IMG/VR virus record: IMGVR_UViG_2778261358_000016
Location: 1 to 14,074 of that record
Reading direction: 5' to 3' (one strand)
Length of the DNA: 14,074 nucleotides
Origin: a virus
Lineage: Duplodnaviria; Heunggongvirae; Uroviricota; Caudoviricetes
Within the stretch, counting starts at the first letter, position 1. Each line of letters opens with the position of its first letter. This document shows, piece after piece, positions 1-14,074 of this stretch. Under the pieces are notes generated by a model. The model searched no databases and was not told the origin of the DNA. It saw nothing but the letters and a program-made list of their open reading frames with translations. A program made the translations under genes and the position numbers.

Positions 1-71
1 ATGATATACATGTTGATTACACTATGCATCGACAACGATGCCACATTTTTGGCTGGTTGGCAAATCTGTCA

Positions 72-257
72 TCAGGGCGGACAACAACGCCACGATCTCA
101 TCTTTCTTGGGCAATTTTTAAGAAAATCCTCAAGGGCAAATCTTTTTGGCCTTGCTTCCTGTTCATGGTCAGGCATTTCATCCATTTCTCTTAATTTTTT
201 TTCTACCTGTCTTTCAAGTATGGATAATGCGATTTCCCGTAATTCTTCGTTGTTCAT
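72..257 (-). CDS. Hypothetical small protein (61 aa), the only leftward gene in the island; candidate regulator
   Basis: AGGAG Shine-Dalgarno about 7 nt upstream of the ATG at 257 (minus strand); divergent from the rightward operon and adjacent to operator-like dyads; no recognisable motif. Confidence 0.35.
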   Translation of the reverse strand: MNNEELREIALSILERQVEKKLREMDEMPDHEQEARPKRFALEDFLKNCPRKMRSWRCCPP

Positions 258-482
258 TGTCTACTCCTGTAAAGAAATGCGCCGTAGTTCCTCACACCAC
301 GGCGCTGATAGTTTTTATCCTTTGGGTTCTATGCCGCGTTGCTGTAATTCTTTGCGGATTATTCGCTTTATCCAGGCAGCAAGAGAATCATCGCCGTCCT
401 GTTGTTGTGCCTTTTCCATCTTTTCCCGTAAGTCAGGATCTAAACGGAACTGGAACGGAGGATTACCACGCCTTTCGTTTTT

Positions 483-543
483 GTGTATTGACACGTTAAT
501 TACACCTCATATAATGTATTTATGTGTAATGACACATTACACA
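483..543 (+). promoter_or_regulatory. Two operator-like sites sharing GTGTAWTGACACRTTA (483..498 and 524..539); second lies in a perfect 8-bp inverted repeat TGTGTAAT-N5-ATTACACA (523..543)
   Basis: Direct repeat of a 16-bp motif spaced 41 bp apart, one copy overlapping the -35 and one just downstream of the -10; dyad symmetry typical of dimeric repressor binding. Confidence 0.4.
488..515 (+). promoter_or_regulatory. Sigma70-type promoter with consensus -35 TTGACA (488..493) and -10 TATAAT (510..515), 16-bp spacer, driving the rightward small-gene operon
   Basis: Exact hexamer matches read directly from sequence; located about 110 bp upstream of the first rightward gene with a strong RBS. 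Confidence 0.5.
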
Positions 544-623
544 CAATCAACACAAAAAGCAAAGCCCCGCACTGTAGGAGCAGTAACGGGGCTTCTAACC
601 AACAACGTAAACTAGGAGCCGTT

Positions 624-821
624 ATGGTTGCCGTAAATCATATACCACACCTTGTACACACACAAACGGCCTTTGTGTGGCGTTTTCTGGCACTGAGTGC
701 CGGAGAATCTCAAATAATCCACGTAACCGCCTGGACGGAACGCGAAGCGCGTAACCGTTGCCCGTCAGGTTGTGTTGCTGTATTCGCCGCCCGTATTCGC
801 CAGGGGTCACATCATGCGTAA
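624..821 (+). CDS. Hypothetical small protein A (65 aa), paralog of the C-terminal part of the next gene
   Basis: AGGAG RBS 5 nt upstream of ATG; conserved blocks FVWRF and TEREAR...ARIRQG shared with ORF 814..1275, differing mainly at synonymous third positions. Confidence 0.55.
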   Translation: MVAVNHIPHLVHTQTAFVWRFLALSAGESQIIHVTAWTEREARNRCPSGCVAVFAARIRQGSHHA

Positions 822-1275
822 AAACCGCTTGCAAAAAATTATCACGGGGCTGTATGCTTCCCCCGTCGCCCACATGGCGACCGGGTTTAGCAGCCTGAAT
901 ACATCTGGCGGACAGCCGCCCACATCCGATAAGCGGTTTTTTTGTGTCCGTAAACCTACCCATACCCGCATTATGGCGGGGCGTAACGGGGGAGCCTTTG
1001 TGCTCGCTGGTTTCCAGATGACCAGTCTGCTAACCCTGTTACGTCTCGCCACCATGTTTAGCAGCGTAGTAGCGAGACTCCTTAAAATTCATCTGGGAGC
1101 CTTTCACATGGCTGTATCCGCACGCCCTTATTTTGTCTGGCGCTTTATGCAGTGCCTGACAGACAGCATTGCAATATTCACCGTTACCGCAGCCACTGAA
1201 CGCGAAGCACGCGCCCAGCTGCCGCACGCACATCTGATTTTTGTCGCCCGTATTCGTCAGGGGGTAGGCTTATGA
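814..1275 (+). CDS. Hypothetical protein B (153 aa) carrying a C-terminal copy of the protein A domain
   Basis: ATG at 814 overlaps the stop of gene A (ATGCGTAA); AGGGG RBS; C-terminal 60 aa align with protein A (FVWRF, VTAxTEREAR, ARIRQG). Confidence 0.5.
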   Translation: MRKNRLQKIITGLYASPVAHMATGFSSLNTSGGQPPTSDKRFFCVRKPTHTRIMAGRNGGAFVLAGFQMTSLLTLLRLATMFSSVVARLLKIHLGAFHMAVSARPYFVWRFMQCLTDSIAIFTVTAATEREARAQLPHAHLIFVARIRQGVGL

Positions 1276-1502
1276 GTCAGGAAATCACACTACAACAGGC
1301 AGCAGAACGCGCCCACCAAATCGAAGTTATTTGCGCACTGGCAGAGGATTACCCTGGCATGATGACCGACAGCGAATCAGGGGCAATCATCGGCTTACTT
1401 AAACGCCTTAGCGGTGAGGTCTGCGTATTCCTGAGCGATGAACAGGAAAGAAGAACGCTTATTTCTAACGAAAAAAAATGCGGAGGGGTACATGTGCAAT
1501 AA
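1272..1502 (+). CDS. Hypothetical small protein C (76 aa)
   Basis: ATG overlaps stop of gene B (TTATGA); G-rich RBS upstream; no recognisable motif. Confidence 0.45.
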   Translation: MSQEITLQQAAERAHQIEVICALAEDYPGMMTDSESGAIIGLLKRLSGEVCVFLSDEQERRTLISNEKKCGGVHVQ

Positions 1503-1722
1503 AACCACACCGGACGCAGCAGAAGAAGCAATGCAAATACTGATACGTGCGCTCGTTGATGTTACCCACATGGTGGAGATTATGGAGAGAAAATCACAGT
1601 CGGAGCACGACAAAAGAAAACTTAAAACAATAAAAATAATTGCCAAAAACTCGCTGATAAAAGTTACAGACATCCTTAATGAGGACATTAAAAGAATAAG
1701 GGAGAAAATTTGTGATGCATAA
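1492..1722 (+). CDS. Hypothetical small protein D (76 aa) in low-GC cassette
   Basis: GGAGGGG RBS 3-4 nt upstream of ATG at 1492; overlaps end of gene C; region about 37 percent GC by eye versus over 50 percent in flanks; Lys/Glu-rich, likely helical. Confidence 0.45.
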   Translation: MCNKTTPDAAEEAMQILIRALVDVTHMVEIMERKSQSEHDKRKLKTIKIIAKNSLIKVTDILNEDIKRIREKICDA

Positions 1723-1942
1723 AATCCCTTTTGAAGTATTAATCCACTCTGAAAACGCATTAATTAAAGCACGCGAAATGAATGCGTTGTTAATTAAATT
1801 AATTGAAGTGCCGGAAGGTGGTGAAGAATCAGGTGTATTAATGTTTGCAGCCATTCAGACATTACTATCGCCGGTTATTGATGAACTGGATAAGGCAATG
1901 GCAATTCACGAGAATAATAACTCGCCCCATACCGGAGAATAA
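1712..1942 (+). CDS. Hypothetical small protein E (76 aa) in low-GC cassette
   Basis: GTG/ATG start at 1712/1715 preceded by AAGGGAG; overlaps stop of gene D; same low-GC patch. Confidence 0.45.
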   Translation: MMHKIPFEVLIHSENALIKAREMNALLIKLIEVPEGGEESGVLMFAAIQTLLSPVIDELDKAMAIHENNNSPHTGE

Positions 1943-1947
1943 AAATA

Positions 1948-2247
1948 ATGAAACTTAAATATTCTGGCTTAACTGCCAGTGGCAAAACTCGCACTAAATT
2001 CATGCGCGGTGATATTTACCGCGACCAGTACGGCGGCACGGTAATGATTAAGGGCGTGGAGGAACGGCGCGTAACCTACCGTCGTGAAGGCTACGAATAT
2101 GATTGCGTGATGCCTGTTTATCAGTTCGACCGTGATTTTTCTCTGGTGCAGGCTGTACCGCGTAACGTTCCAACCAGCAGGGAGAAAGCACGCGCCAATA
2201 TTCAGGAAATAAGAAAGATGTTGAATGTATTCAGGGGTAAAAAATGA
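1948..2247 (+). CDS. Hypothetical small protein F (99 aa), translationally coupled to the replication helicase
   Basis: Stop TGA overlaps rep ATG (ATGA at 2244..2247); GGAG upstream; no recognisable motif. Confidence 0.5.
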   Translation: MKLKYSGLTASGKTRTKFMRGDIYRDQYGGTVMIKGVEERRVTYRREGYEYDCVMPVYQFDRDFSLVQAVPRNVPTSREKARANIQEIRKMLNVFRGKK

Positions 2248-3650
2248 AACTGGCACCGAACGTAAAACTGTTACCGAAAGATAAACACACTGAGGCGGTT
2301 ATTTTTGCGGGTGATAATGCTCACTCCTTTGCAGAACATTACATGATTGCACAGGCCAAAAAAGCAGGCGATCCCATCCCTCCGGTTTACCTGGGCCGTT
2401 ATCAGTTAAGCGAACTGGACAATTTACAGATTGTTGATGAAGGACGATACAGAGCAAAGGTCATACGCGCCGGAAACCTGGACGATATGCAGATGCTGAC
2501 CATTGCCACCAAACTGGCGATCGCAGGTGTCCGGGAAGCGCGGTTACTTTCAGAGAATTTCGAACTACTGGAGGACTGGAGCGAGCAACTACCGCGACTT
2601 AAAGAAACCTGGGAACGCGGGGAAAGTCTGGTCATGAATGGCGTAAAGCGAAAAATCACACTTCCCATCTCATGGGGTTCTGAGGGATTCGACGCGCAGC
2701 AAAGCTACGTAATTAAGGGGCTTATTCCGGCTGAATCATTATGCAGCACCTACGGGGCCAGCGGTTCTTATAAATTGTTCCTGGCTATTTCCTGGTCGTG
2801 CCATGTTGCCACAGGTATGGCATGGGGAGGCCGCAGGGTAAGTAAGGGCGCGGTTATCTATATCGCTGGCGAAGGCAGTATGGGCGTAAAACGCCGCGTT
2901 AAGGCGTGGGAGATAACCCACGACAAGGTGGTTACGGATTTGTGCATCGTTAACGCGCCTGTCTTCCCTGCATCGCCTGACTATGTGGAGCAGGTTATCA
3001 GGACTGCCGGACTTGTTAAGAGCAGAACGGGCGAAAATGTGCGGCTGATTGTGATCGACACGCTGGCCCGTTGCTTTGGTGGGAATGATGAAAATGATTC
3101 CCGTGATATGGGCGCATTTATCCAGGGGTGTGACGCGATAAAGCAGGCCACAGGGGCCACGGTACTGGTGGTTCACCATTCCGGCAAGGATGAAACAAAG
3201 GGGGCGCGAGGTTCCAGCGCATTCCGCGCTGCACTGGATGCAGAGTACCGAATCAGCCGGGAAAATTCAGACGTTACAGCACTGGTGGCGGCGTGTACGA
3301 AGATGAAAGACGCAGAGGAGCCAAAAGAGAGCGCATACGACCTTAAAAGCGTGGAGGTGTTTACCGATACCGATGGCGAAGAGATTGTGTCCATGGTGGT
3401 GATTGACGTTCCCCGCGCCCCTGCTGAACTGGAGCGCATAGAGGAGGCCGGGAACAAGACGGAAAATCACACGGCTTTATGGGGTTGTATCCGGTCACGT
3501 ATACAGCATGGTGATAAATGCACGATCCCGCTGCTACGTGATGACATGAAAAAGCTGGGATATGACACAAAACACCTTAAACGATGGTTAGCCAAACTGG
3601 AAAAAGACGGCGTGATTTGCGTCGATGGGGATGATGTTCACCCACTGTAA
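2244..3650 (+). CDS. Replication protein, RepA-like RecA-fold helicase (AAA_25 family) with N-terminal and C-terminal extra domains
   Basis: Motifs resembling RSF1010 RepA-type helicases: GASGSYKLFLAISW (P-loop region, deviant), VIYIAGEGS, VIDTLARCF (Walker B-like), VLVVHHSGKDETKGARGSSAF (HH..K and RGSS motifs); iteron array immediately downstream. Confidence 0.7.
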   Translation: MKLAPNVKLLPKDKHTEAVIFAGDNAHSFAEHYMIAQAKKAGDPIPPVYLGRYQLSELDNLQIVDEGRYRAKVIRAGNLDDMQMLTIATKLAIAGVREARLLSENFELLEDWSEQLPRLKETWERGESLVMNGVKRKITLPISWGSEGFDAQQSYVIKGLIPAESLCSTYGASGSYKLFLAISWSCHVATGMAWGGRRVSKGAVIYIAGEGSMGVKRRVKAWEITHDKVVTDLCIVNAPVFPASPDYVEQVIRTAGLVKSRTGENVRLIVIDTLARCFGGNDENDSRDMGAFIQGCDAIKQATGATVLVVHHSGKDETKGARGSSAFRAALDAEYRISRENSDVTALVAACTKMKDAEEPKESAYDLKSVEVFTDTDGEEIVSMVVIDVPRAPAELERIEEAGNKTENHTALWGCIRSRIQHGDKCTIPLLRDDMKKLGYDTKHLKRWLAKLEKDGVICVDGDDVHPL

Positions 3651-3714
3651 AAAGTGGGCGTTAAAAGTGGGCGTTAAAAGTGGGCGTTAAAAGTGGGCGT
3701 TAAAAGTGGGAATA
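3650..3714 (+). repeat. Iteron array: four perfect tandem copies of 13-bp AAAAGTGGGCGTT plus one degenerate copy; further GTGGG-core copies in both orientations to about 3895; candidate origin of replication
   Basis: Perfect 13-bp direct repeats start at the rep stop codon; inverted copy CGCCCACTTT at 3744..3753; additional AAGTGGGC/AGGTGGGC copies at 3774..3890. Confidence 0.7.
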
Positions 3715-3891
3715 GTGGGTAATTTAACTGGAATTTAACAAAATCGCCCACTTTCCCACGTGTATACATCCCAAAAAGTGGGCACTAAAAAAATACTTAT
3801 GAAACAGTACGATATAAAACCACAAAATCCCAGGTGGGACGAAGTGGGAAACCATGAAAAGTTGGTAGAAAAAGTGGGCACAGGTGGGCGC

Positions 3892-4143
3892 ATGACCAGA
3901 AAAACCAGAGATAAGACAGCACCAAAATATCGCGCATTAGACATGACAGAGCACGCCTTAAAGGTGGCAATCAGAACGATAGACCGACACGTAGGGGAAG
4001 GATACGCGAAGGAACATCCCGACCTGATAAGCGCATTCATGACCACAGCAGCGGCAAACTTTGCCACGCTGACAGAACGGGAGATCGCAGAAGCAGAACA
4101 GGTAACAACCATCAACGTTAAAACCGGAGAGGTGGAATCATGA
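3892..4143 (+). CDS. Hypothetical protein (83 aa; start uncertain, ORF is open from 3760)
   Basis: AGGTGG RBS before ATG at 3892; upstream part of the open frame is occupied by iteron copies; stop overlaps the SSB start. Confidence 0.4.
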   Translation: MTRKTRDKTAPKYRALDMTEHALKVAIRTIDRHVGEGYAKEHPDLISAFMTTAAANFATLTEREIAEAEQVTTINVKTGEVES

Positions 4144-4550
4144 CAGCACAGATAGCGGCTTACGGGCGGCTGGTGGACGACCCGCAGGTAAAACAGACCA
4201 GTAAGGGCACACCGATGACGCTGGCGCGTATGGCGGTATCGTTGCCATGTAGTCAGGCGCAGGATGGGCAGGCGACGTTATGGCTATCGGTCATCGCATT
4301 TGGTAAGCAGGCCGACTTCCTGGCTAAACATCAAAAAGGCGACGTTGCCAGCGTATCCGGCACGATGCAGGTCAGCCAGTGGACCGGACAGAACGGGGAA
4401 ACGCGGCAGGGTTATCAGGTTATTGCAGACAGCGTAATCAGTGCCCGTGCGGCACGTCCTGGCGGGAACAGACGCAAAACCACAGGCACACAGGGTAATC
4501 AGCCACCAGCGGGAGGCGATGACCCTTACGGTGACGGTATTCCGTTCTGA
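4140..4550 (+). CDS. Single-stranded DNA-binding protein (SSB) homolog
   Basis: OB-fold core resembling E. coli SSB (WLSVIAFGKQADFLAKHQKGDVASVSGTMQVSQWTGQNGETRQGYQVIADSV), Gly/Gln-rich linker and acidic C-terminal tip DDPYGDGIPF (compare DDDIPF); strong GGAGAGGTGG RBS. Confidence 0.75.
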   Translation: MTAQIAAYGRLVDDPQVKQTSKGTPMTLARMAVSLPCSQAQDGQATLWLSVIAFGKQADFLAKHQKGDVASVSGTMQVSQWTGQNGETRQGYQVIADSVISARAARPGGNRRKTTGTQGNQPPAGGDDPYGDGIPF

Positions 4551-4560
4551 GGGGGTGGCG

Positions 4561-4833
4561 ATGGTACATGACCGCATAGCGGAAGAACTCGAGGCGAAAG
4601 GCTTTTACCGGAGGGCGTCGGCGCGATGGGGTGAAGTCATGCTGCTGGTGGAGACAGACAAGGAACGGCATCAGGTTACGATGCGACGGCTGGAATGTTC
4701 CAGGAAGGCACAGAAGCCACCGGAGCCGCCGGATAACTTCGGAGACCTGAGAAAGGCAGTAGATCGCACTTATGCTGAAATGGGTATAGATGGTGTAAGC
4801 GATGAAATATGGCGAAATTACCAGGACAGATAA
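4561..4833 (+). CDS. Hypothetical protein (91 aa)
   Basis: GAGGGGGTGG RBS before ATG at 4561; followed by an intrinsic terminator; ORF-track start at 4441 would overlap SSB and is less likely. Confidence 0.45.
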   Translation: MVHDRIAEELEAKGFYRRASARWGEVMLLVETDKERHQVTMRRLECSRKAQKPPEPPDNFGDLRKAVDRTYAEMGIDGVSDEIWRNYQDR

Positions 4834-4839
4834 TCACAC

Positions 4840-4862
4840 AGCCGGAGCAATCCGGCTTTTTG
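4840..4862 (+). terminator. Rho-independent terminator closing the replication operon
   Basis: AGCCGGA-GCAA-TCCGGCT hairpin followed by TTTTTGTCATGTTTT. Confidence 0.6.
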
Positions 4863-4981
4863 TCATGTTTTGTAAATTATTTGTTCGTGGTTGTTCCACG
4901 TTGCTCGCTGACCGGAACGGCATATTTTACCCGACCTGAATCATGATTATTCTCGCCCGTGGTGCCAGGACGCTGGGGCCA

Positions 4982-5031
4982 TTTTCCCGCCTGTTAATGT
5001 GCTCGCCAATATTCATTACCAGGCGGGAAAA
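4982..5031 (+). repeat. Perfect 12-bp inverted repeat TTTTCCCGCCTG-N26-CAGGCGGGAAAA in the leader of the capsid operon
   Basis: Arms are exact reverse complements; about 90 bp upstream of the capsid start; not followed by a T-run on either strand. Confidence 0.5.
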
Positions 5032-5120
5032 CGATCGGTGCGATTACTGATTTCCTTATGAAAAACGGTTGAGTGTTTGCCGCGTCCTGGAGTTCCTTAC
5101 TTAACCCCAGGACTTTTTTT

Positions 5121-6278
5121 ATGCCGAGAATAATCGAATTACGCCAGCAGAAAACCGCCATTAAAAATCAGATGCGCGACATGCTGGAGAACGCGGAAAA
5201 AGAAAACCGCAGTCTTAACGATGCTGAGGGCGCAAAATTTGACGAATTACGCGCTAAAGCTGAATCCCTCGATAAAGACATTTCCCGCCTTGAAGCCATT
5301 GCAGACGAAGAGCGCAGCAAGCCAGGTAAAAGCAGCCAGACCACTGACCCCGCAGAACTACGCAACTACATTCTGACAGGTGAAACCCGCGCATTAAGTA
5401 CAGGCGTTCCCGCTGATGGTGGTTATACCGTTATCCCCGAACTGAACACCGAAATCATGCGAATGCTGACGGATGAATCCACCATGCGCCGCATCTGTAC
5501 CGTGAAGAAAATCAGCAGCAACGAGTTTAAGCAGCTTGTTTCCGCTGGCGGTGCGACCGTTAACCACGGTGAAGAGGGTAAGACACGCGAACAGACCAGC
5601 ACCCCGCAGATTAACGAGGTGAGCATTAAGCTGTATCCGGTCTATGCGTACCCGCGCACCACATAGGAAATCGTGGATTTTTCCGATGTGGACATCCTTT
5701 CATGGCTGACGGGTGAGATTGGCGACACCTTCACGGAAACCGAAGAAAGCGATCTGGTTGTGGGCGACGGTGACAAAAAAGCAAAAGGTTTTTTATCCGT
5801 ACCCCGTGCAGAGAAGAACGACAAAGAGCGTGATTTTGGTACGTTGCAGGTAATTAAACCTTCCGAATCTCTGGCGTGGACATCTGCGGACCCGCTGATC
5901 GACCTGAAATTTGCATTACGTAAAAAATACCGCAAAAACGCGGTCTGGGTGGTTAACTCCACGACGGCGGCAAAACTTCAGAAGGTGAAGAACGCGAACG
6001 GTGATTACATCTGGCGCGACCGTTTACAGGCGGGTGATCCTGATACGTTGCTGGGCCTTCCGGTCGAATATCTGGAGTTTATGCCTGATAACGTTATTGC
6101 CCTGGGTGACTTCAAACGCGGTTACTACATTGTTGATCACGAAACAGGTGTTCGCACCAGACCGGACAACCTCACAGAGCCGGGCTTCATCAAAATTTTC
6201 ACGCAGAAATATTTAGGCGGTGGCGTGGTGGATTCGAACGCGATCAAGATTCTGGAACTGCCACAGGACGACGATTAA
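5121..6278 (+). pseudogene. HK97-family major capsid protein interrupted by a single in-frame amber codon (TAG 5664..5666); pseudogene or suppression-dependent
   Basis: ORFs 5073..5666 and 5673..6278 are in the same frame, separated only by TAG; conserved capsid region continues across the stop (YPRTT*EIVDFSDVDILSWL...GDGDKKAKGFL); N-terminal coiled-coil delta-like domain; AGGA RBS before ATG 5121. Confidence 0.7.
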
Positions 6279-6288
6279 CAGCATACAG

Positions 6289-6319
6289 AAGGGGCTTAAA
6301 AGCCCCTTTAGTGTTTTAT
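6289..6319 (+). terminator. Intrinsic terminator/attenuator directly after the major capsid gene
   Basis: AGGGGCTT-AAA-AGCCCCT hairpin followed by TTAGTGTTTT; overlaps the protease start region. Confidence 0.5.
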
Positions 6320-6890
6320 GGGTGAAAAAATTATGAAGAGTATGGAAATCCGGTCATCGGAAATCACTACCAGCGGAGCCGGTACGCTGACGGGCTACGT
6401 TGTTCGCTGGGATAAGCTTTCAGAACTGCTATGGGGGGAGTTTTACGAAAAATTCCAGCGGGGGGCGTTTACTGAGTGGCTTGCGGCGGGTAATGACGTT
6501 CGCGGCCTGTATGAGCATGACCACAGCATGTTACTGGGGCGCACCCGTTCCGGCACGCTGAAACTGGAAGAGGACGAAACAGGGTTACGCTTTGAACTGA
6601 CCCCACCGGATACCAGTACAGGGCGCGACGTTATCGAACTGGTTAAACGAGGTGATATATCCGGCATGAGCTTTGGCTTTCGTTCCCGTAAGGATGTATG
6701 GGATACCACAACAGATCCATGCGTGCGCACCGTGCTGGTGGCGGAACTATACGAAATTACCGTTACATCCGTACCGGCTTACCCTGATTCCGGCGTGGAG
6801 CTGGCCCGCCGCTCCCTGTACGAGCAGCACCCCGAAAAAATGCCGCGTGCGGATAATCGCCGCTGGTGGGCGGATTTAGCGGGGGTGTGA
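6318..6890 (+). CDS. Prohead maturation protease, HK97 family (start may be 6333 or 6342)
   Basis: Position next to capsid and portal; motifs LYEHDHSMLLGRT and GDISGMSFGF consistent with HK97-type prohead proteases. Confidence 0.75.
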   Translation: MGEKIMKSMEIRSSEITTSGAGTLTGYVVRWDKLSELLWGEFYEKFQRGAFTEWLAAGNDVRGLYEHDHSMLLGRTRSGTLKLEEDETGLRFELTPPDTSTGRDVIELVKRGDISGMSFGFRSRKDVWDTTTDPCVRTVLVAELYEITVTSVPAYPDSGVELARRSLYEQHPEKMPRADNRRWWADLAGV

Positions 6891-6891
6891 T

Positions 6892-8103
6892 ATGTGGCCT
6901 TTCAGAAGAAAAAAAGAGCAGCGCAGCATGACGCTTGATGAGTTTATGGCGCTGGCTGGCACATCGAACACGGGGGCGGGTGAGTACGTATCATCGGGGA
7001 CAGCGGAATCACTGCCCGCCGTCATGAACGCCGTCACGGTCATCTCTGAGGCGGTGGCTACCATGCCGTGTTACCTGTACCTGGTACGCAATGAGAAGGG
7101 GAAGGAGGCCCGAGAGTGGCTTGATTCTCATCCGGTCGATCACATCCTCAACGAGCGCCCGAACGCATGGCAAACCCCCTACCAGTTTAAGCGAATGATG
7201 ATTCGCCACTGCCTGTTAAACGGTAATGCTTATGCGGTGATTCAGTGGGGGCGTGATGGTTTTCCAGTCGCTTTGCATCCTTACCCGCCGCAGTCGGTGA
7301 ACGTTGAGCAGACAGGTGAGCATAACTGGCGCTACTGCATCACTGACGCCTACACCGGAAACACCCGCAACTATTTACCGTGGGAGGTTCTCCACCTTCG
7401 TTACTCCACGGATGACGGTTTTATGGGGCGCTCACCTGTAACCATCTGCCGCGAATCGCTGGGGCTTGGGCTGGCCCAACAACGCCACGGCGCGAGCGTG
7501 ATGCGTGATGGCATGATGGCGGCAGGGGTTATCACGTCAGGCGAATGGCTGGACGGCGTGAAGGGCAAACAGGCATTAGCCGCACTGGAACGCTACAAAG
7601 GGGCCAGAAACGCCGGAAAAACGCCCATCCTTGAAGGGGGTATGAGCTATCAGCAGCTGGGCATGAGTAATCAGGATGCTGAATGGCTGGCCTCCCGTCG
7701 CTTCACCATTGAAGACATCGCCCGAATGTTCAACGTCTCGCCGATTTTTTTGCAGGAATACAGCAACAGCACCTACAGCAATTTCAGCGAGGCAAGCCGC
7801 GCATTTCTCACCATGACGATGCGCCCGTGGCTGGCGAACTTTGAGCAGCAGATAAAAAACGCCCTGCTGGTGGCCTCACCTGTACCTGGTATCCGGTATC
7901 AGGTGGAGTTTGACAGCGCGGACCTGTTACGGGCCACTCCTGGCGAACGCTTTGCCACCTATGAACGCGGCATCAAATCCGGCGTTATGTGCCCGAACGA
8001 AGCCCGCGAACGTGAAGGGCTGTCCCCGCGTGATGGTGGTGATGAGTTCAGCCAGGCATGGAAACAGGAAGTAAAAATCAGCGAGGGAGAAAAACCGGAA
8101 TGA
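6892..8103 (+). CDS. Portal protein, HK97 family
   Basis: 403-aa protein with portal-like conserved blocks (NAYAVIQ, EDIARMFNVSPIFL); start overlaps protease stop. Confidence 0.8.
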   Translation: MWPFRRKKEQRSMTLDEFMALAGTSNTGAGEYVSSGTAESLPAVMNAVTVISEAVATMPCYLYLVRNEKGKEAREWLDSHPVDHILNERPNAWQTPYQFKRMMIRHCLLNGNAYAVIQWGRDGFPVALHPYPPQSVNVEQTGEHNWRYCITDAYTGNTRNYLPWEVLHLRYSTDDGFMGRSPVTICRESLGLGLAQQRHGASVMRDGMMAAGVITSGEWLDGVKGKQALAALERYKGARNAGKTPILEGGMSYQQLGMSNQDAEWLASRRFTIEDIARMFNVSPIFLQEYSNSTYSNFSEASRAFLTMTMRPWLANFEQQIKNALLVASPVPGIRYQVEFDSADLLRATPGERFATYERGIKSGVMCPNEAREREGLSPRDGGDEFSQAWKQEVKISEGEKPE

Positions 8104-8438
8104 ACATAGGGCGACTGCGTGACAGGGTAACGATTCAGACCCTGAAACAGACCAGGGATATAACCGGCGAAATACTCGAAACGTGGGTGGACGGTCACAC
8201 ACTCTGGGCAAGCGTGAACATGATCAGCAGCAAGGAGGCCATTTCATCGGGTGCAGAACTGGCGACTGGAACGGTAAGGATATGGATACGCTACAGGAAG
8301 GACATCAACGCCACCAGCCGGATAAAGGTCAATACGGGGCCGCTGGCGGGGCGTGTACTGAATATCATCGGGCAGCCGCTGCCGGATGCCGCCAGGACAC
8401 GCCTTGAAATTCTTTGTCGTGAGGGCGCGGAAAAATGA
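8100..8438 (+). CDS. Head-tail joining / head closure protein (Phage_H_T_join-like)
   Basis: About 112 aa; N-terminal GRLRDRVTIQ...TWVDGHTLWASV pattern typical of the family; ATGA overlap with portal stop; GAGGGAG RBS. Confidence 0.6.
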   Translation: MNIGRLRDRVTIQTLKQTRDITGEILETWVDGHTLWASVNMISSKEAISSGAELATGTVRIWIRYRKDINATSRIKVNTGPLAGRVLNIIGQPLPDAARTRLEILCREGAEK

Positions 8439-8731
8439 CAGAAGAACTTATCACCCTGGAAGAAGTGAAACTCCATTGCCGCATCGATGGCGACGAGGAA
8501 GACCAGTTAATCAGCGGATACATCGCCGCATCGCTTGAGGCGTGCCAGATACACATAGGCAGGCGCTTTGATGACGGGCTGGAGTTCACGCCAGCCATAA
8601 AGATTGGCTGCATGATGTTTATCGCTCACCTGTATGAAAATCGCCAGATTGTCGCGGATAACGCAAAAACACGCGTACCCATGACGATTGGTGCACTCTG
8701 GACGGCTTACCGTGATGTGGGGGTGTACTGA
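8435..8731 (+). CDS. gp6-like head-tail connector protein
   Basis: N-terminal ITLEEVKLHCRIDGDEEDQLISGYIAAS matches the characteristic LxxAKxHLRID..D.LI motif of gp6-like connectors. Confidence 0.65.
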   Translation: MTEELITLEEVKLHCRIDGDEEDQLISGYIAASLEACQIHIGRRFDDGLEFTPAIKIGCMMFIAHLYENRQIVADNAKTRVPMTIGALWTAYRDVGVY

Positions 8732-9171
8732 TGCCGTGGCAACCATTAAGACGATGCACAGAACCAGGCTGTAACAGGCGCGTGAAGTCCGGCAAGTGTG
8801 AGGAGCACAGGCGGGCGGCATGGCGTGCAGAGGATGCCAGACGAGGACACCGCCGCGCGCGTGGGTACTCCAGACAGTGGGACAAATACCGCGCCATGTA
8901 TCTGAGTAAAAACCCGTTATGCGTGCGATGCCTTGAGAAGGGGATATATACGCCCGCCGTGGTGGTGGATCACATTATCCCGATTAATGGCGGTGATGAT
9001 GTTCTCTTCTGGCCCGAATGGAACCATCAGCCATTGTGCCAGGCGTGCCATAACCAGAAAACGAAATGGCTTGATCCGGCAACAAAAAGCAAGCGTGCCG
9101 CAGGTGGATTTCGTGAAGAGGAAGAACGGGCCGCTAACCGCAATAACTGGATGTATGACGCTGATGAATGA
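8731..9171 (+). CDS. HNH endonuclease associated with the terminase (HK97 gp74-like role)
   Basis: Cys-rich zinc-binding N-terminus and HNH motif VVVDHIIPINGGDD...NHQPLCQACHNQKT; sits immediately upstream of terS/terL. Confidence 0.8.
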   Translation: MPWQPLRRCTEPGCNRRVKSGKCEEHRRAAWRAEDARRGHRRARGYSRQWDKYRAMYLSKNPLCVRCLEKGIYTPAVVVDHIIPINGGDDVLFWPEWNHQPLCQACHNQKTKWLDPATKSKRAAGGFREEEERAANRNNWMYDADE

Positions 9172-9337
9172 GCGGGAACAAAACCGCCTTATCCGTGGAC
9201 TTATAAGGCAGCGTGACGCATGGAAGACACAGGAAACAGGGCATAAAGATAAAGCGTCAGGACGCGCAGAACGCATCACAGCGAAGCGATTAACCGACCG
9301 TGACTGCGAGGTTATGGAATGTTTCCGCAATCGCTGA
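9164..9337 (+). CDS. Hypothetical small basic protein (57 aa)
   Basis: ATG overlaps HNH stop (ATGAATGA); no clear RBS; Arg/Lys-rich; could be non-coding. Confidence 0.3.
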   Translation: MNEREQNRLIRGLIRQRDAWKTQETGHKDKASGRAERITAKRLTDRDCEVMECFRNR

Positions 9338-9460
9338 TGAGGCTGTATGACGGGGTGGGGGGCGTTTTCAGGACAAACCCGACCCCGCCGGGCACCGAAC
9401 GCCTCCTCAAATTTTTATGCACGGGAATTTTTTGAAAAATAATCTGGCGAAAAAATAAGC
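9338..9460 (+). other. Putative cos region between HNH and terS
   Basis: G-rich imperfect dyad GGGGTGGGG-N17-CCCGACCCC at about 9352..9386; position matches the HNH-cos-terS-terL arrangement known from HK97-like cos phages. Confidence 0.3.
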
Positions 9461-9817
9461 ATGGCAAGACCACCGAAAGCCCCCGCCTACCTGGATGATA
9501 TCGCCGTGAAGCAGTGGCGGGAAAAATCGCGGCAGCTTGCGGAACGGGGAGACCTTACCCCCGCCGACTGGAGTAATCTGGAACTGTATTGTGTCAACTA
9601 CTCCATTTACCGGAAAGCCGTTGCAGACCTTGCGGCGCGCGGGTTCAGCATTGTTAACAGTCAGGGCGGCGAGAGCAGAAACCCCGCATTAAGCGCAAAA
9701 TCCGACGCTGAAAGAGTGATGATAAAAATGGCCTCCTTGCTCGGTTTTGACCCGATAAGCCGCCGTAAAAATCCACCGGAAACAGAAGAAGAGGACGAGC
9801 TTGACCGCCTGGAATAA
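9461..9817 (+). CDS. Terminase small subunit (P27-family-like)
   Basis: About 118 aa starting MARPPKAP, acidic C-terminus, immediately upstream of and overlapping terL. Confidence 0.65.
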   Translation: MARPPKAPAYLDDIAVKQWREKSRQLAERGDLTPADWSNLELYCVNYSIYRKAVADLAARGFSIVNSQGGESRNPALSAKSDAERVMIKMASLLGFDPISRRKNPPETEEEDELDRLE

Positions 9818-11462
9818 GTACGCAGAAGACGTAAAAACGGGCAAAATTCCGGCCTGTAAACGGCTGAAACAGGCCGTTAAACGGTACTTTTCGGACCTTG
9901 AAAGCCCCCTTTACACGTTCGATCGTGAGGTTGTGGAGCGGTTTATTGCCTTTTCCAGGGTGTGCCCGCACGTAAAAGGCGCAATGCGCGGTAGCCCCAT
10001 TGAGCTGGAGCCGTGGCAGCAGTTCGCCTTTGCGTGCATCCTCGGCTTTAAGGTTAAGGCCACCGGACGGCGCAAATACACGAGCGCCTTTATCGAAGTG
10101 CCGCGCAAAAATGCGAAATCCACGACCGCCGCGATTCTGGCTAACTGGTTTTTGATTATGGAGAACGGTCAGCAGGATATCTACACCGCAGCGGTGAGCC
10201 GTGACCAGGCGCGGATCGTCTTTGATGATGCGCGTCAGATGTGCCTTTTATCCCGACCGTTACGCAGGCGGGTGAATATTCAGGCGCATAAGGTGATACA
10301 CCCGAAAAGCAACAGCCTGTTAAAGCCGCTGGCAGCAAAAGCGGCAACCATTGAAGGTACAAACCCGAGTCTTGCCATTGTGGATGAATATCACCTGCAC
10401 CCTGACAACGGGGTTTATTCCGCGCTTGAACTGGGAATGGGGGCGCGTCCGGAGGGGCTGTTATTTGCCATCACCACATCGGGGAGCAACGTTGTTTCAG
10501 CCTGTAAACAACACTACGACTATTGCTGCCAGATACTGGATGGTGAAGAGGTGAACGAATCCATGTTCGTGCTGATTTACGAGCTGGATGATGAAAGCGA
10601 GGTTGACGATCCGGCGATGTGGATAAAGGCGAATCCCAATATCGATGTTTCCGTCGATCGTGAAAAACTGGCCTCAACCATCCAGAAAGCGCGGGGAATA
10701 CCGTCGCAGTGGGTGGAGATGATGACAAAGCGATTTAATATCTGGTGCCAGGGGGCTACCCCGTGGATGGGTAACGGCGCATGGGCTGAGTGTGCCGGAA
10801 CGTTCACGGAGGAAGATTTACACGGCCAGGAGTGTTACGCGGGGCTGGATTTATCATCAACCAGCGATATTTCCAGCGTATGCTATGCCTTTCCGGTCGG
10901 TAAAACCATTATGCTGATTTCCCGTCATTATCTGCCGGAGTTCCAGCTACAGAACCCCGCCAATAAAAACCGCGCTGTCTATCGTCAGTGGGCTAAAGCG
11001 GGCTGGATACGCACAACGCCTGGCGACTGCATTGATTACGACCGGATCAGAGATGACATCATGCAGGACGCGGAGAAATTTCATATCAGGCTGGTGGGCT
11101 TTGATACGTGGAACGCCACGCATCTCAGAACGCAATTACAGGGGGCAGGTTTTGAGGTGGAGCCGTTCCCGCAAACCTACCTCAGATTCAGTCCGGCGGC
11201 GAAATCGTTCGAAGTTTTTGTTAACCGCAGGGTGATTGTGCATCGTGGCGATCCGGTGTTGTCCTGGTCGATGAGTAACGTCGTGATGCAGAGTGACGCG
11301 AACGCCAATATCAAGCCGAACAAGAAAAAATCACCGAACAAGATAGACCCGAGCGTGGCGGCACTGATGGCGTTTGGTACATTCCAGGCAGAGCATGAGG
11401 ATTTTGCTTTTGATATAAGCGACAGCCACCGCCAGAAACTGGAAGAATTCAGCGGGGTGTAA
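9801..11462 (+). CDS. Terminase large subunit (TTG start)
   Basis: 553 aa; ATPase Walker A-like VPRKNAKST and Walker B LAIVDEYHL; nuclease-domain motif GLDLSSTSD; GAGGA RBS 5 nt before TTG at 9801, which overlaps the terS 3-prime end by 17 nt. Confidence 0.85.
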   Translation: MTAWNKYAEDVKTGKIPACKRLKQAVKRYFSDLESPLYTFDREVVERFIAFSRVCPHVKGAMRGSPIELEPWQQFAFACILGFKVKATGRRKYTSAFIEVPRKNAKSTTAAILANWFLIMENGQQDIYTAAVSRDQARIVFDDARQMCLLSRPLRRRVNIQAHKVIHPKSNSLLKPLAAKAATIEGTNPSLAIVDEYHLHPDNGVYSALELGMGARPEGLLFAITTSGSNVVSACKQHYDYCCQILDGEEVNESMFVLIYELDDESEVDDPAMWIKANPNIDVSVDREKLASTIQKARGIPSQWVEMMTKRFNIWCQGATPWMGNGAWAECAGTFTEEDLHGQECYAGLDLSSTSDISSVCYAFPVGKTIMLISRHYLPEFQLQNPANKNRAVYRQWAKAGWIRTTPGDCIDYDRIRDDIMQDAEKFHIRLVGFDTWNATHLRTQLQGAGFEVEPFPQTYLRFSPAAKSFEVFVNRRVIVHRGDPVLSWSMSNVVMQSDANANIKPNKKKSPNKIDPSVAALMAFGTFQAEHEDFAFDISDSHRQKLEEFSGV

Positions 11463-11475
11463 TGAGGTCAGCAGC

Positions 11476-11757
11476 ATGACAGAAGCCGAACTACTGGGAT
11501 TAATCCGCCGCGTATCTGGAATCAGCCAGCAGGCTGACGAACAGACCACGCAGCCGGACAGCGTGACAGCCGAAAATTATGCGCGTGTTGTTGCTGAGGT
11601 GATGTGCCGTGATGGTATCCAGCTTAATGATGTTGATATGCGCAACATACGGATCCGCGTTCTTGAAATGCTGGCCTACAATCGCCGCGTTGAACTGCAT
11701 CGGGAGAAAGAAAAAATAACGTACCACTGGAAGAAGCCGGAGCGGTTGCGGCGGTAA
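11476..11757 (+). CDS. Hypothetical protein (93 aa) downstream of terL
   Basis: ORF following terL; its stop codon lies inside the first copy of the downstream repeat box. Confidence 0.45.
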   Translation: MTEAELLGLIRRVSGISQQADEQTTQPDSVTAENYARVVAEVMCRDGIQLNDVDMRNIRIRVLEMLAYNRRVELHREKEKITYHWKKPERLRR

Positions 11758-12173
11758 CTGGTTGATATTTTCGAAATTCGCCAGCGGCGAACATCGGGGA
11801 AACCAGCCTAACCCGTTGATTCTTTCGGAAACAGCCATTGGCGGAATCCGGCGCGGTAACTTGCTGATATTCCCGATAACGCAAAATTGCGTGGCTGAAT
11901 GAACATTATGATTACTTATGATTACGCAGATGATTAAGGCCTAAACCGTTGATTCTTCCCAATTTCCACAGACTGTGGAAGTTGGCGCGGTAACTTACTG
12001 AGATTAAAGCAAAGCGCAAAATTGCGCCGACTACATCCCTCACATGCGAAATTTTCGCAGTTTAATTACTCGCCAGTTTGATCGTTAACCCGCTGATATT
12101 TTCGGGAACCTCAATTTGAGGAAGTCGGCGCGGTAACTGGTTGATACTTTCGACCTCCTCAATTTGAGGAGGT
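11748..12173 (+). repeat. Array of diverged about 133-bp tandem units, each with a Y box (TAAMCCGYTGATWYTTYC) and an X box (GGCGCGGTAACTNNNTGANAT) followed by palindromes of unit-specific sequence
   Basis: X boxes at 11748, 11848, 11982, 12125; Y boxes at 11809, 11942, 12084; palindromes TTCGCC-N3-GGCGAA, CGCAAAATTGCG (twice), TTCCACAGACTGTGGAA, CCTCAATTTGAGG (twice, once extended to 11-bp arms). Confidence 0.7.
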
Positions 12174-12613
12174 CGGGGCACAGAAAAACAACGAATATGT
12201 TGTTTTTGGGAATGGTCATAATGACCACGCAGACCATCAAGGCAACCACAACGAACATCGTTACGGTTGGAGCTTTTACCCCACTGGGGGAAAGGTATTA
12301 CGATAATCATAACACCTACCGAACAGGTAAAACCCACCAGCCTGATTAACAGTTAACCGGAAAAAAAATCCGGTAGCCCCGTTATGGGGATCCCCATATC
12401 GACATTAACGCCCCTCATGAATTGGTGCGCTTCCCCCTGGAAAGATTACCCGCCTGTATATTTCTTGTGTCTATTTGTTCCACGTTGTTTCATACAGTGC
12501 ACCGAACGGTGTAGTTAATGGTGTAGTCAATTTGCTGTTTTTAGCACTTTTTGCAGTGTGGGTTGTTTAATTAAATCAATTGGTTGCCTTGCTGTGGTGA
12601 TAAAAGGACATAT

Positions 12614-14074
12614 TTATTCATCTTTCGGCGCAGAATGCTGGCGACCAAAAATCACCTCCATCCGCGCACCGCCCAGCATGCTCTCTCCGGCGACGATTTT
12701 ACCCTCATATTGCTCGGTGATTTCGCGGGCTACCGCCAGCCCTACACCTTGCCCAGGGCGTAAAGTATCAACCCGTTGACCACGGTCGAAAATGACCTCT
12801 CGCTTGCTTAATGGAATACCGGGGCCATCATCCTCGACCACAATATAGAGATGCTCGTCGGTTTGCCTTGCAGAAATTTCGACAAACTCGAGGCAATATT
12901 TACAGGCATTATCCAGCACGTTGCCCATCACCTCGACAAAATCGTTCTGCTCACCGACAAAGCTGATCTCTGGCGAAATATCGAGAGAGATATTGACCCC
13001 TTTGCGTTGATACACTTTGTTCAGCGCTGAGGTGAGATTGTCCAGCAGTGGGGCGACCGGATGCAGCTCGCGGCTGAGCAATGTCCCGCCGCGCATACTG
13101 GCACGATGCAGGTAGTAGCCAATTTGCTGTGAAATGCGGCTGATTTGCTCCAGCATTACCGGCTCAGCATCACTGACGCTCATCTTTTCACTACGCAGAG
13201 AACGCAGCGTACTTTGCAGCACCGCCAGTGGCGTTTTCAGACTATGGGTCAGGTCGGTGAGCGTCGTACGGTATTTGTCGTAACGTTCGCGTTCACTTTT
13301 TAACAATCGGTTCAGGTTTCGTACCAGACTGGTCAGTTCTCGCGTTGTGGCTGGATTGAGCAATTCGCGGTTATGTTCTTCCAGTTCGCGGACTTCTTTT
13401 GCCAGGGCTTCGATGGGGCGTAAACTCCACCAGGCGGCGACCCACAGCAGCGGGATCACTAACAGCAGATTGGCTGAGAGCACATAGATAAACCAGCTCC
13501 AGACCATATAGGAACTTTTTAGCTCCACCGGAATGGTATCCACCACCACAATGGTTAATTTTGGCATCCGCGATGTTGCCGGGTAGACGTTTACTGCCAC
13601 CGAGTGGGTCATCTCCGCGTCGTCATCATCTTCCCGCACTTCCTGCAACTGTTGCTGTATCGAATGATCTCCACTCAGCAAGAGGCTGGTATCGTTAACA
13701 TCCGCTTCAATTTCATGAAAACCATTCGATTTCAGCCAGTCAGGCTGGATCATCTTCATCAGCCAGGGCACGTCACGTTGCGCCCATAAAAGCTGCCCGT
13801 TCTCATCATAAATTAGCGTCATGGTGGGGCTTTGCTTGTCGATATTTTCGGGTAACTCGACATGCAACTTATTGTTTTCCCACTTCGCAAGGGTATAGAA
13901 CAGATTGCTCTCGCCACGTAACAGCCGAAACGTAGTTTTATCGAAACTGACGCTATAACCGATCAGCGCGACCATTCCGTAGGCAAGCGAAAGCACCAGT
14001 ACTACCGCAGCCGTTGCCAACAGAAAACGTACCCGCAGTGAGAGCGGGAAAAAAAGACGCAGTAATTTTTTCAT
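12614..14074 (-). CDS. phoQ: Sensor histidine kinase PhoQ (complete, 486 aa)
   Basis: Translation shows two transmembrane segments, an acidic periplasmic patch (EDDDDAE), the H-box ([12 protein letters not shown]) and ATP-binding G-boxes; C-terminus [11 protein letters not shown] as in enterobacterial PhoQ. Confidence 0.95.

Follow-up and report, generated by a model that had tools for sequence, protein, structure and literature searches.

Two Icd/Kil-family genes split by a P1/P4-type antisense RNA cassette as the probable regulatory head of the early operon in a capsid-forming satellite island

The closest described system to the locus considered here is, by architecture, the immunity region of the satellite P4 and, by sequence, the immI region of phages P1 and P7. 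In P4, an IsrK/seqA-like element, an RNA of the C4 family and an Icd-like open reading frame (ORF; Kil, 65 aa), which starts after a b2-like site, follow one another at the head of the satellite replication operon. The antisense RNA has a target copy on either side, and a long ORF in the frame of the small toxic gene begins upstream of the internal promoter and crosses the cassette. The 65-aa Icd-like ORF, preceded by 152 open in-frame codons, corresponds to kil nested in eta, and eta is reported to start upstream of the constitutive promoter PLE, to be translated only from the regulated promoter PLL further upstream, and to let transcripts escape CI-dependent termination. A related arrangement is the isrK locus of Gifsy-1 in Salmonella (IsrK, STnc1160, orf45, anrP), in which a leaky-terminator IsrK and a processed C4-like RNA are combined with a small upstream ORF whose translation gates the downstream genes (PMC4825925), and the IsrK-C4 relationship among P4, P1, P7 and Gifsy-1 has already been published (PMC4825925, PMC3632133). 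Here, we analyzed a 14,074-nt stretch of viral DNA (Caudoviricetes; IMG/VR record IMGVR_UViG_2778261358_000016, positions 1 to 14,074), referred to as the window, with a focus on positions 624–1275. Judged by the RefSeq annotation of a 99.8% identical island in Escherichia coli E110019, the element is a capsid-forming PICI (cf-PICI) located between roxA and phoQ, the family features used for classification being those described previously (bioRxiv 10.1101/2022.09.08.507074). With a probability that we put at roughly 75%, 624–1275 serves as the control region at the start of the island's early (replication) operon and comprises two Icd/Kil genes split by an RNA cassette of the P1-immI/P4 type, with the following components:

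624–821, plus strand: icd-1 (encoding "protein A" of the initial annotation of this DNA), Icd/Kil-family, 65 aa, with no C4 target sites (TTAGCAG, CATCTGG) upstream.
814–1275, plus strand: long ORF ("protein B"), ATG at 814 with GTG at 772 as alternative start, 153 or 167 aa, P4 eta-like, in frame with icd-2.
852–947, plus strand: IsrK/P4 seqA-like element, consisting of a hairpin, a1, b1, and then a weak terminator hairpin with a U7 tract (~914–947).
887–893, plus strand: target site a1, TTAGCAG.
902–908, plus strand: target site b1, CATCTGG.
975–1053, plus strand: C4 (P4 CI-type) antisense RNA, predicted mature form of 79 nt, with ends placed by alignment to the annotated P1 C4.
1014–1020, plus strand: b' in the C4 loop, CCAGATG.
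1027–1033, plus strand: a' in C4, CTGCTAA.
1058–1064, plus strand: target site a2, TTAGCAG, the complement of a'.
1089–1099, plus strand: target site b2, TCATCTGGGAG, which takes in the icd-2 Shine-Dalgarno sequence GGGAG.
1108–1275, plus strand: icd-2 (encoding B'), the portion of protein B that is actually Icd-like, 55 aa, homologous to P1 Icd and P4 Kil.

The window shares with P4 the order of elements, the two target copies flanking the antisense RNA, the position of the cassette at the head of a satellite replication operon, and the long ORF that begins upstream of the internal promoter and crosses the cassette in the frame of the small gene. It differs from P4 in an extra C4-independent Icd gene upstream, which translationally overlaps the long ORF, in an upstream promoter apparently controlled by an Arc-like repressor, in a downstream RepA-family helicase where P4 has the alpha primase, and in its host, a cf-PICI with capsid and terminase genes of its own. 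Nucleotide similarity to P4 is low, whereas 877–1066, from a1 through a2, is collinear with and 75–79% identical to the c4 region of P7/P1. The Icd proteins are homologous, the icd stop overlaps the ATG of the next gene in both P1 and the window (ATGA, at 1272 in the window), and the a-site is identical to that of P7. The b sites, on the other hand, are different (CATCTGG in the window, GTTAGTG in P1 and GATTGTG in P7), and P1/P7 carry ant1/ant2 downstream of icd, while the window has no ant. P1/P7 also lack the upstream icd copy, which was found at fixed spacing in 11 of 16 unique satellite-type loci and in none of 58 P1-like loci, and they mostly lack a long ORF through c4. Their Icd is 73 aa long, compared to 55 aa for the icd-2 product, which is without the dispensable C-terminal tail. 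With Gifsy-1 the window has in common an IsrK-type element (the isrK match at 865–943 being below threshold), a C4-like RNA and a small upstream ORF, but in Gifsy-1 the short form of IsrK switches translation on in trans, with an antiterminator cascade as output, and no sign of that polarity was seen in the window. The island type to which the window belongs is represented by EcCIEDL933 of E. coli O157:H7, which has the same roxA-phoQ site and gene order and is 94.7% identical in nucleotide sequence over the leader and icd-1 (icd-1 dN/dS 0.25, the ratio of nonsynonymous to synonymous substitution rates); Icd, antisense RNA and repressor are unmentioned in the paper describing cf-PICIs (bioRxiv 10.1101/2022.09.08.507074).

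The region between the two genes, 852–1107, holds a C4 antisense RNA and two target pairs, a1/b1 and a2/b2. The C4 RNA matched Rfam family RF01695 with 72.7 bits (gathering threshold 45, E-value 6.7e-13), with model positions 1–87 of 87 covered at 969–1056, and a tRNA-like closing stem and a 3' GCCACC are visible. The segment folds at -45.9 kcal/mol (z-score -5.4) with a' in an unpaired joint, and its stems show compensatory pairs across 37 homologs. Exact 7-nt complements of a'/b' were found at 887, 902, 1058 and 1090, and this cassette stretch of ~200 nt contains every TTAGCAG of the 14-kb window (three in number) as well as three of its four copies of CATCTGG. When compared to P1, the annotated -10 element (P1c4/P51b), a1, b1, C4, a2, b2 and the icd start are all in register with the window. 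The b2 site covers GGGAG, located 9 nt before the icd-2 ATG at 1108, and a2/b2 is predicted from its sequence to be the antisense operator of icd-2.

The pairing between the C4 loops and their targets was compared across relatives by scanning viral contigs with a C4 5' pattern, which returned 119 loci, 74 of which were unique and could be parsed. In all 74, a1 and a2 were identical to each other and exactly complementary to a', and b1 and b2 were each complementary to b' over 7 nt or more. Two a-types (TTAGCAG and TTGACAG) and at least 13 b-types were distinguished, and the code of the window combines the a-type of P7 with a b-type (CATCTGG) distinct from those of both P1 and P7. In L008, a related island with 88.5% overall identity, the a and b codes both differ from those of the window and every site is compensated. 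Target sites and C4 loops thus change together, which argues from the sequences for a functional antisense system.

Proteins A and B had initially been described as tandem paralogs under purifying selection, belonging to a family unknown to the annotator. The paralogy was borne out, as A and the C-terminal ~50 residues of B align with 24 of 51 residues identical (BLASTP, E-value 3e-11); the blocks FVWRF, VTAxTEREAR and ARIRQG are common to both in this alignment, and the codon stretches quoted in support of coding, TTTGTGTGGCGTTTT and TTTGTCTGGCGCTTT, were both found in the sequence. The family could be named: a profile search assigned both copies to NCBIfam NF033153 (phage_ICD_like; curated cut-off 25), A with 64.8 bits over residues 17–60 and B' with 53.8 bits over residues 9–51, while the long form of B scored 49.9 bits with the match confined to residues 107–149. 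RefSeq uses the name "host cell division inhibitor Icd-like protein" for both genes, in the E110019 island (99.8% identical) as well as in numerous further genomes. NF033153 is also matched by P1 Icd, over residues 12–51, and by the C-terminal end of the ORF formerly annotated as the P4 "cI protein", an end equivalent to Kil. P1 Icd binds FtsZ and blocks Z-rings, and its active core comprises residues 12–51 (PMC11897509). A and B' align across this core, with F, WRF, V, A, TE, EAR, P, F and AR invariant, and consist of little more than the 40 residues sufficient for P1 Icd activity; icd-2 aligns with P1/P7 Icd from the annotated P1/P7 start codon onward. In all likelihood, Icd-1 and Icd-2 target FtsZ and halt cell division while the satellite goes through its cycle.

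Purifying selection on A and B' was confirmed by codon-position diversity and by ortholog comparisons. The mean pairwise diversity at codon positions 1, 2 and 3 among 11 related islands was 0.15, 0.13 and 0.28 for A and 0.09, 0.10 and 0.19 for the C-terminal part of B. The dN/dS values of icd-1 were 0.06–0.35 against 11 orthologs, and those of icd-2 were 0.13–0.48 with a single outlier at 0.94, indicating that both copies are constrained among orthologs. A codon alignment of the paralogs A and B' gave a dN of 0.59 and a dS of 1.04, the latter near saturation, and different codons are used at nine of 25 identical aligned residues. The codons of IRQG (CGT CAG GGG) double as the Shine-Dalgarno sequence of the next overlapping gene in both copies (801–816 and 1258–1274) and also in P1, and part of the IRQG conservation may therefore be at the nucleotide level. 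Control of icd-1 by C4 was considered and rejected, as no a or b site is found upstream of 624, merely a 5-bp match to a' in the loop of the leader hairpin.

Other searches with the Icd proteins returned little. Pfam holds no model for Icd-1 or Icd-2, and no matching solved structure was found. A tblastn search against 50,697 phage records gave no match for icd-2 and one record for icd-1, since the proteins are too short for such a search; it was comparison at the DNA and RNA level that connected them to P1, P7 and P4. A genome-contig scan with the Icd alignment returned one locus, the back-translated patterns being too specific. The families PHROG 1743 and 6196, matched by 624–821 and 1108–1275, carry the label "transcriptional repressor", which probably derives from the obsolete protein annotation of the P4 cI locus.

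Protein B is of composite nature: its Icd-like portion is limited to the final 55 codons, and the first ~98 overlie the IsrK/a1b1 element, C4 and a2/b2. The initial annotation had seen in this N-terminal part a possible third degenerate copy of the protein repeat, and two features are in keeping with that proposal: the ORF does span 772/814–1275, with the 153-aa form annotated by RefSeq, and the echo HMATGFSS (871–894)/LATMFSS (1045–1065) does recur in B. The echo is, however, the translated repeat of the a-site with its flanking stem (TTTAGCAGC, at a1 and a2), that is, of the 7-nt target TTAGCAG that covaries with the C4 loop in the 74 loci, and what had been taken for a third copy is the RNA cassette rather than protein, a high-scoring C4 region 75–79% identical to the non-coding c4 of P1/P7. 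The N-terminal part matches no NCBIfam, Pfam or PHROG family, whereas the C-terminal part does, and substitutions in 814–1107 show no third-position excess. In addition, part of the stretch is read in different frames in different islands, through mutually compensating indels located in b1 and in the loops of the terminator and of b'. On these grounds, a diverged protein repeat was rejected as an explanation of this N-terminal part.

The long ORF is nevertheless probably not an accident. The icd-2 frame is stop-free over 727–1272, while the other two frames contain 5–7 stops in 814–1107, and an open frame of this kind arose by chance in shuffled sequences with P = 0.021. The number of open in-frame codons is 110–205 in all 16 satellite-type loci and 152 in P4, compared to mostly 11–14 in P1-like phages, and in six islands the upstream cassette is likewise crossed by the long frame without a stop. 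Furthermore, the frame relative to the RNA elements is identical in four diverged lineages, where translation gives FF(C)V at the terminator U-tract and (I/T)M(A/V)G at the 5' end of C4, and the indels preserve the overall frame. The ATG at 814, which lies 15 nt upstream of the candidate -35 element at 829, overlaps the icd-1 stop (ATGCGTAA; TAA at 819–821), and both are invariant in 11 of 11 islands, with two varying bases between them. We infer that protein B may be translated, with its first 98 residues selected for openness only.

Upstream of and within the locus, the following control elements were identified, together with the genes that follow it:

315–494, minus strand: 59-aa ORF, candidate Arc-like (ribbon-helix-helix) repressor (PHROG 228 "Arc-like repressor", E-value 2.5e-6).
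483–542, plus strand: half-sites GTGTA(A/T)T/ATTACAC at 483, 499, 524 and 536, including an inverted repeat; presumed operators.
488–515, plus strand: predicted early sigma-70 promoter TTGACA-16-TATAAT, 12/12 to consensus.
564–595, plus strand: conserved icd-1 leader stem-loop GCCCCG...CGGGGC, followed by TCTAACC.
829–858, plus strand: candidate internal promoter TTGCAA-18-TATGCT, positional homolog of P1 P1c4/P51b and analog of P4 PLE.
1272–3650, plus strand: downstream genes, comprising three small ORFs, a DUF4222 protein and a RepA-family helicase, presumably under C4 control.

The 59-aa ORF also gave a weak match to NCBIfam YlcI/YnfO, and its ortholog in L008 is annotated as a YlcI/YnfO family member. 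Together with the half-sites, it likely forms, as inferred from their arrangement, a repressor-operator pair for the early operon of the island. In L113, another related island, a different repeated motif, GGTCACCT, occupies the position of the half-sites. The leader stem changes compensatorily and its loops are variable in L006, L008 and L113. Read on the minus strand, the leader stem-loop has a T-rich tail and resembles an intrinsic terminator (fold z-score -2.9); no minus-strand gene or promoter that it would serve was found. The candidate internal promoter is nearly invariant in 11 islands, and its TATGCT (853–858) aligns with the annotated P1 -10 element TATAGT, directly 5' of the conserved TCCNCCGTCG.

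The island carries int, a gene for an AlpA-like helix-turn-helix protein, a pair of small genes on the minus strand, the icd region, three small ORFs and genes for a DUF4222 protein, the RepA helicase, SSB and PerC; after these come the genes for an HK97-type capsid, protease, portal, connectors, HNH, TerS and TerL, with no tail genes. From icd-1 to the RepA gene the genes are tightly packed, their stops and starts mostly overlapping or 5 nt apart, and DUF4222 and AAA_25 matches were found downstream of icd-2. The RepA-family helicase ORF (2244–3650, 468 aa) is intact in the window, while it is annotated as a pseudogene with an internal stop in the E110019 RefSeq record and as frameshifted in O157:H7 SS17. 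A gene for a PerC-family regulator is located at ~4548–4820, as judged by correspondence with 18049–18321 of the related island L001, and may be relevant to virulence regulation in enteropathogenic and enterohemorrhagic E. coli hosts. In L006, a plus-strand "partial Icd-like pseudogene" annotated by RefSeq at 2819–3412 overlies what appear to be small genes of the repressor side on the minus strand; as neither a C4 nor an Icd signal was detected at this place, the annotation looks spurious.

Under the proposed model, the weak internal promoter at 829–858 would make the IsrK-like RNA and, by read-through, the C4 precursor. Mature C4 would pair with a2/b2 and block translation of icd-2, and as icd-2 heads a tightly packed chain of overlapping genes, the untranslated transcript is proposed to be terminated by Rho-dependent polarity as in P1/P4, keeping the small genes and the RepA helicase silent. 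Upon induction, the promoter at 488–515, until then probably held off by the divergent Arc-like repressor, would fire. Being without C4 sites, icd-1 would be translated, and ribosomes would re-initiate at 814 via the ATGCGTAA overlap and cross the cassette into icd-2. Translation of the long ORF, like that of P4 eta, would mask the targets and the terminator and allow transcription to reach the replication genes, and the Icd proteins would arrest division on induction.

A number of observations weigh against this interpretation. The IsrK-like element missed its thresholds, with c4-a1b1 (Rfam RF03163) scoring 45.5 bits against a gathering threshold of 46.7 at 852–901 in a permissive scan and isrK (Rfam RF01394) scoring 36.8 bits against 50 at 865–943, and an IsrK-type terminator was not reported by the scan of the window. 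The orthologs in L008, L120, L077 and L101 reached 46.8 bits for c4-a1b1, and isrK in the upstream modules of related islands and in P4 scored 60.8–66 bits; in view of the latter scores, the window copy is best described as a diverged relative, IsrK-like. The internal promoter matches the consensus at just 8/12 positions and was missed by the promoter scan. No Ant, KilA or Bro antirepressor domain was found in the downstream ORFs (Pfam, NCBIfam; PHROGs of unknown function at most), and the output logic of P1 is thus inapplicable, this not being an immI operon. Diversity in 814–1107 was 0.085, 0.089 and 0.060 by codon position (0.031, 0.057 and 0.022 with the target sites left out), and this lack of a third-position excess indicates constraint on RNA or regulatory sequence, not on protein. 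The 16 satellite loci are mutually related, and their open frames are hence not independent, and since most P1-like phages lack the long ORF, the module does not depend on translation across the cassette. Both promoters and the transcription start sites are proposed by homology, as are the processing of C4, the Rho-dependent polarity and translation of the long ORF, and retention of a second, C4-independent Icd is not explained by the model.

Among the alternatives, an addiction or stabilization function would come closest, although we regard it as unlikely. Here, the cassette would act as a type I toxin-antitoxin-like system in which C4 restrains the toxic Icd-2 and loss of C4 or of the whole island kills or arrests the cell, with replication control being secondary. 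Overexpression of P4 Kil is lethal, and in the window the antisense RNA lies directly upstream of the ribosome binding site of the toxin gene. Overexpression of P1 Icd blocks Z-rings and kills cells (PMC11897509), and IsrK-like elements of P4-like prophages were required for growth in S. Typhi transposon libraries (PMC3632133). However, icd-2 heads a tightly packed operon that ends in RepA, the same cassette controls the replication genes in P4 and ant in P1, and icd-1, by presumption equally toxic, has no C4 sites. Less probable still is a role as an inter-element weapon or immunity, by which C4 would act in trans on incoming satellites of the same code or on P1/P7-like phages and block their icd-linked operons. 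The combinatorial code of two a-types and at least 13 b-types and its rapid switching between otherwise ~90% identical islands are as expected of immunity specificities, the a-type of the window is that of P7, and a protective role of IsrK-C4 systems has been speculated (PMC3632133). Code diversification would be equally expected from mere avoidance of cross-talk with co-resident relatives, though, and as the b-type of the window is unlike those of P1/P7, full pairing with these phages is not predicted. That the locus simply holds two or three tandem protein copies of an unknown domain, B being a genuine 153–167-aa protein with a degenerate repeat as its N-terminal half, is very improbable given the absence of protein-level signal and the presence of C4 in 814–1107.

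Returning to the regulatory-head interpretation, the number of modules was found to vary between islands. About 1,715 of 5,426 complete E. coli genomes match part of 560–1290, and only 66 have the full arrangement of the window. Related islands contain zero, one or two RNA cassettes; extra copies, for which the initial annotation had suggested looking in related islands, do exist, although not where it had placed the third copy. Four states were distinguished, one of them being the upstream icd of the 11 satellite-type loci mentioned above. The O157:H7 island has only the leader and icd-1 at the same site, with C4 RNA not detected and icd-2 absent, and in P4-like elements a single cassette accompanies a single icd. 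Two complete tandem modules (isrK-C4-icd-1 and a1b1-C4-icd-2) with a period of ~478 bp and different a/b codes were found in five islands, L113 (2642–3530), L030, L077, L120 and L101, each module being crossed by a long ORF in the icd frame, and some related islands contain the 5' portion of an additional icd copy in fused form. The first long ORF of L120 and L077 opens with the same 24 residues as icd-1 of the window (MVAVNHIPHLVHTQTAFVWRFLAL) and then runs through cassette 1, so that the window icd-1 looks like the product of a crossover between icd repeats that lost cassette 1. These observations suggest that recombination between icd repeats adds or removes cassettes, and for the window icd-1 the exchange may have gone in either direction.

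A more tentative extension of the model, which we hold to be possible but rather less likely than its opposite, is that satellite IsrK-C4 cassettes are embedded in translated "pass-through" ORFs and form recombining tandem locks overridden by one upstream master key. Such ORFs, found in enterobacterial satellites and mostly not in P1-like phages, may be free in sequence but conserved in openness and frame. The RNA locks may be orthogonal, each with its own a/b code and Icd, in arrays that grow and shrink via recombination between icd repeats, and the window may represent a one-and-a-half-module state, with icd-1 as the crossover product minus cassette 1. Translation from the protein-repressed upstream promoter may then override all RNA locks at once.

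Regarding annotation, the C4 RNA, the probable regulator, is unannotated in the E. coli genome records examined, while RefSeq treats the long ORF as a 153-aa protein and PHROGs, via the old P4 "cI repressor" label, as a "transcriptional repressor". The clean a/b code, with all sites compensated, offers ready-made orthogonal antisense regulators, and it marks those co-resident elements that are able to cross-talk. No new principle is involved, since a known P1/P4 system is extended to another satellite family in tandem form, and the finding is largely accounted for by known biology. What is distinct here are the tandem, partly collapsed modules, the extra C4-independent Icd and the cf-PICI host. 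The cf-PICIs have been described as induced through AlpA, and a P4-type RNA lock on the replication operon would, if true, be an added layer of control in this family. As the lock is present in some cf-PICIs and absent from the O157:H7 prototype at the same site, these islands provide natural isogenic comparisons.

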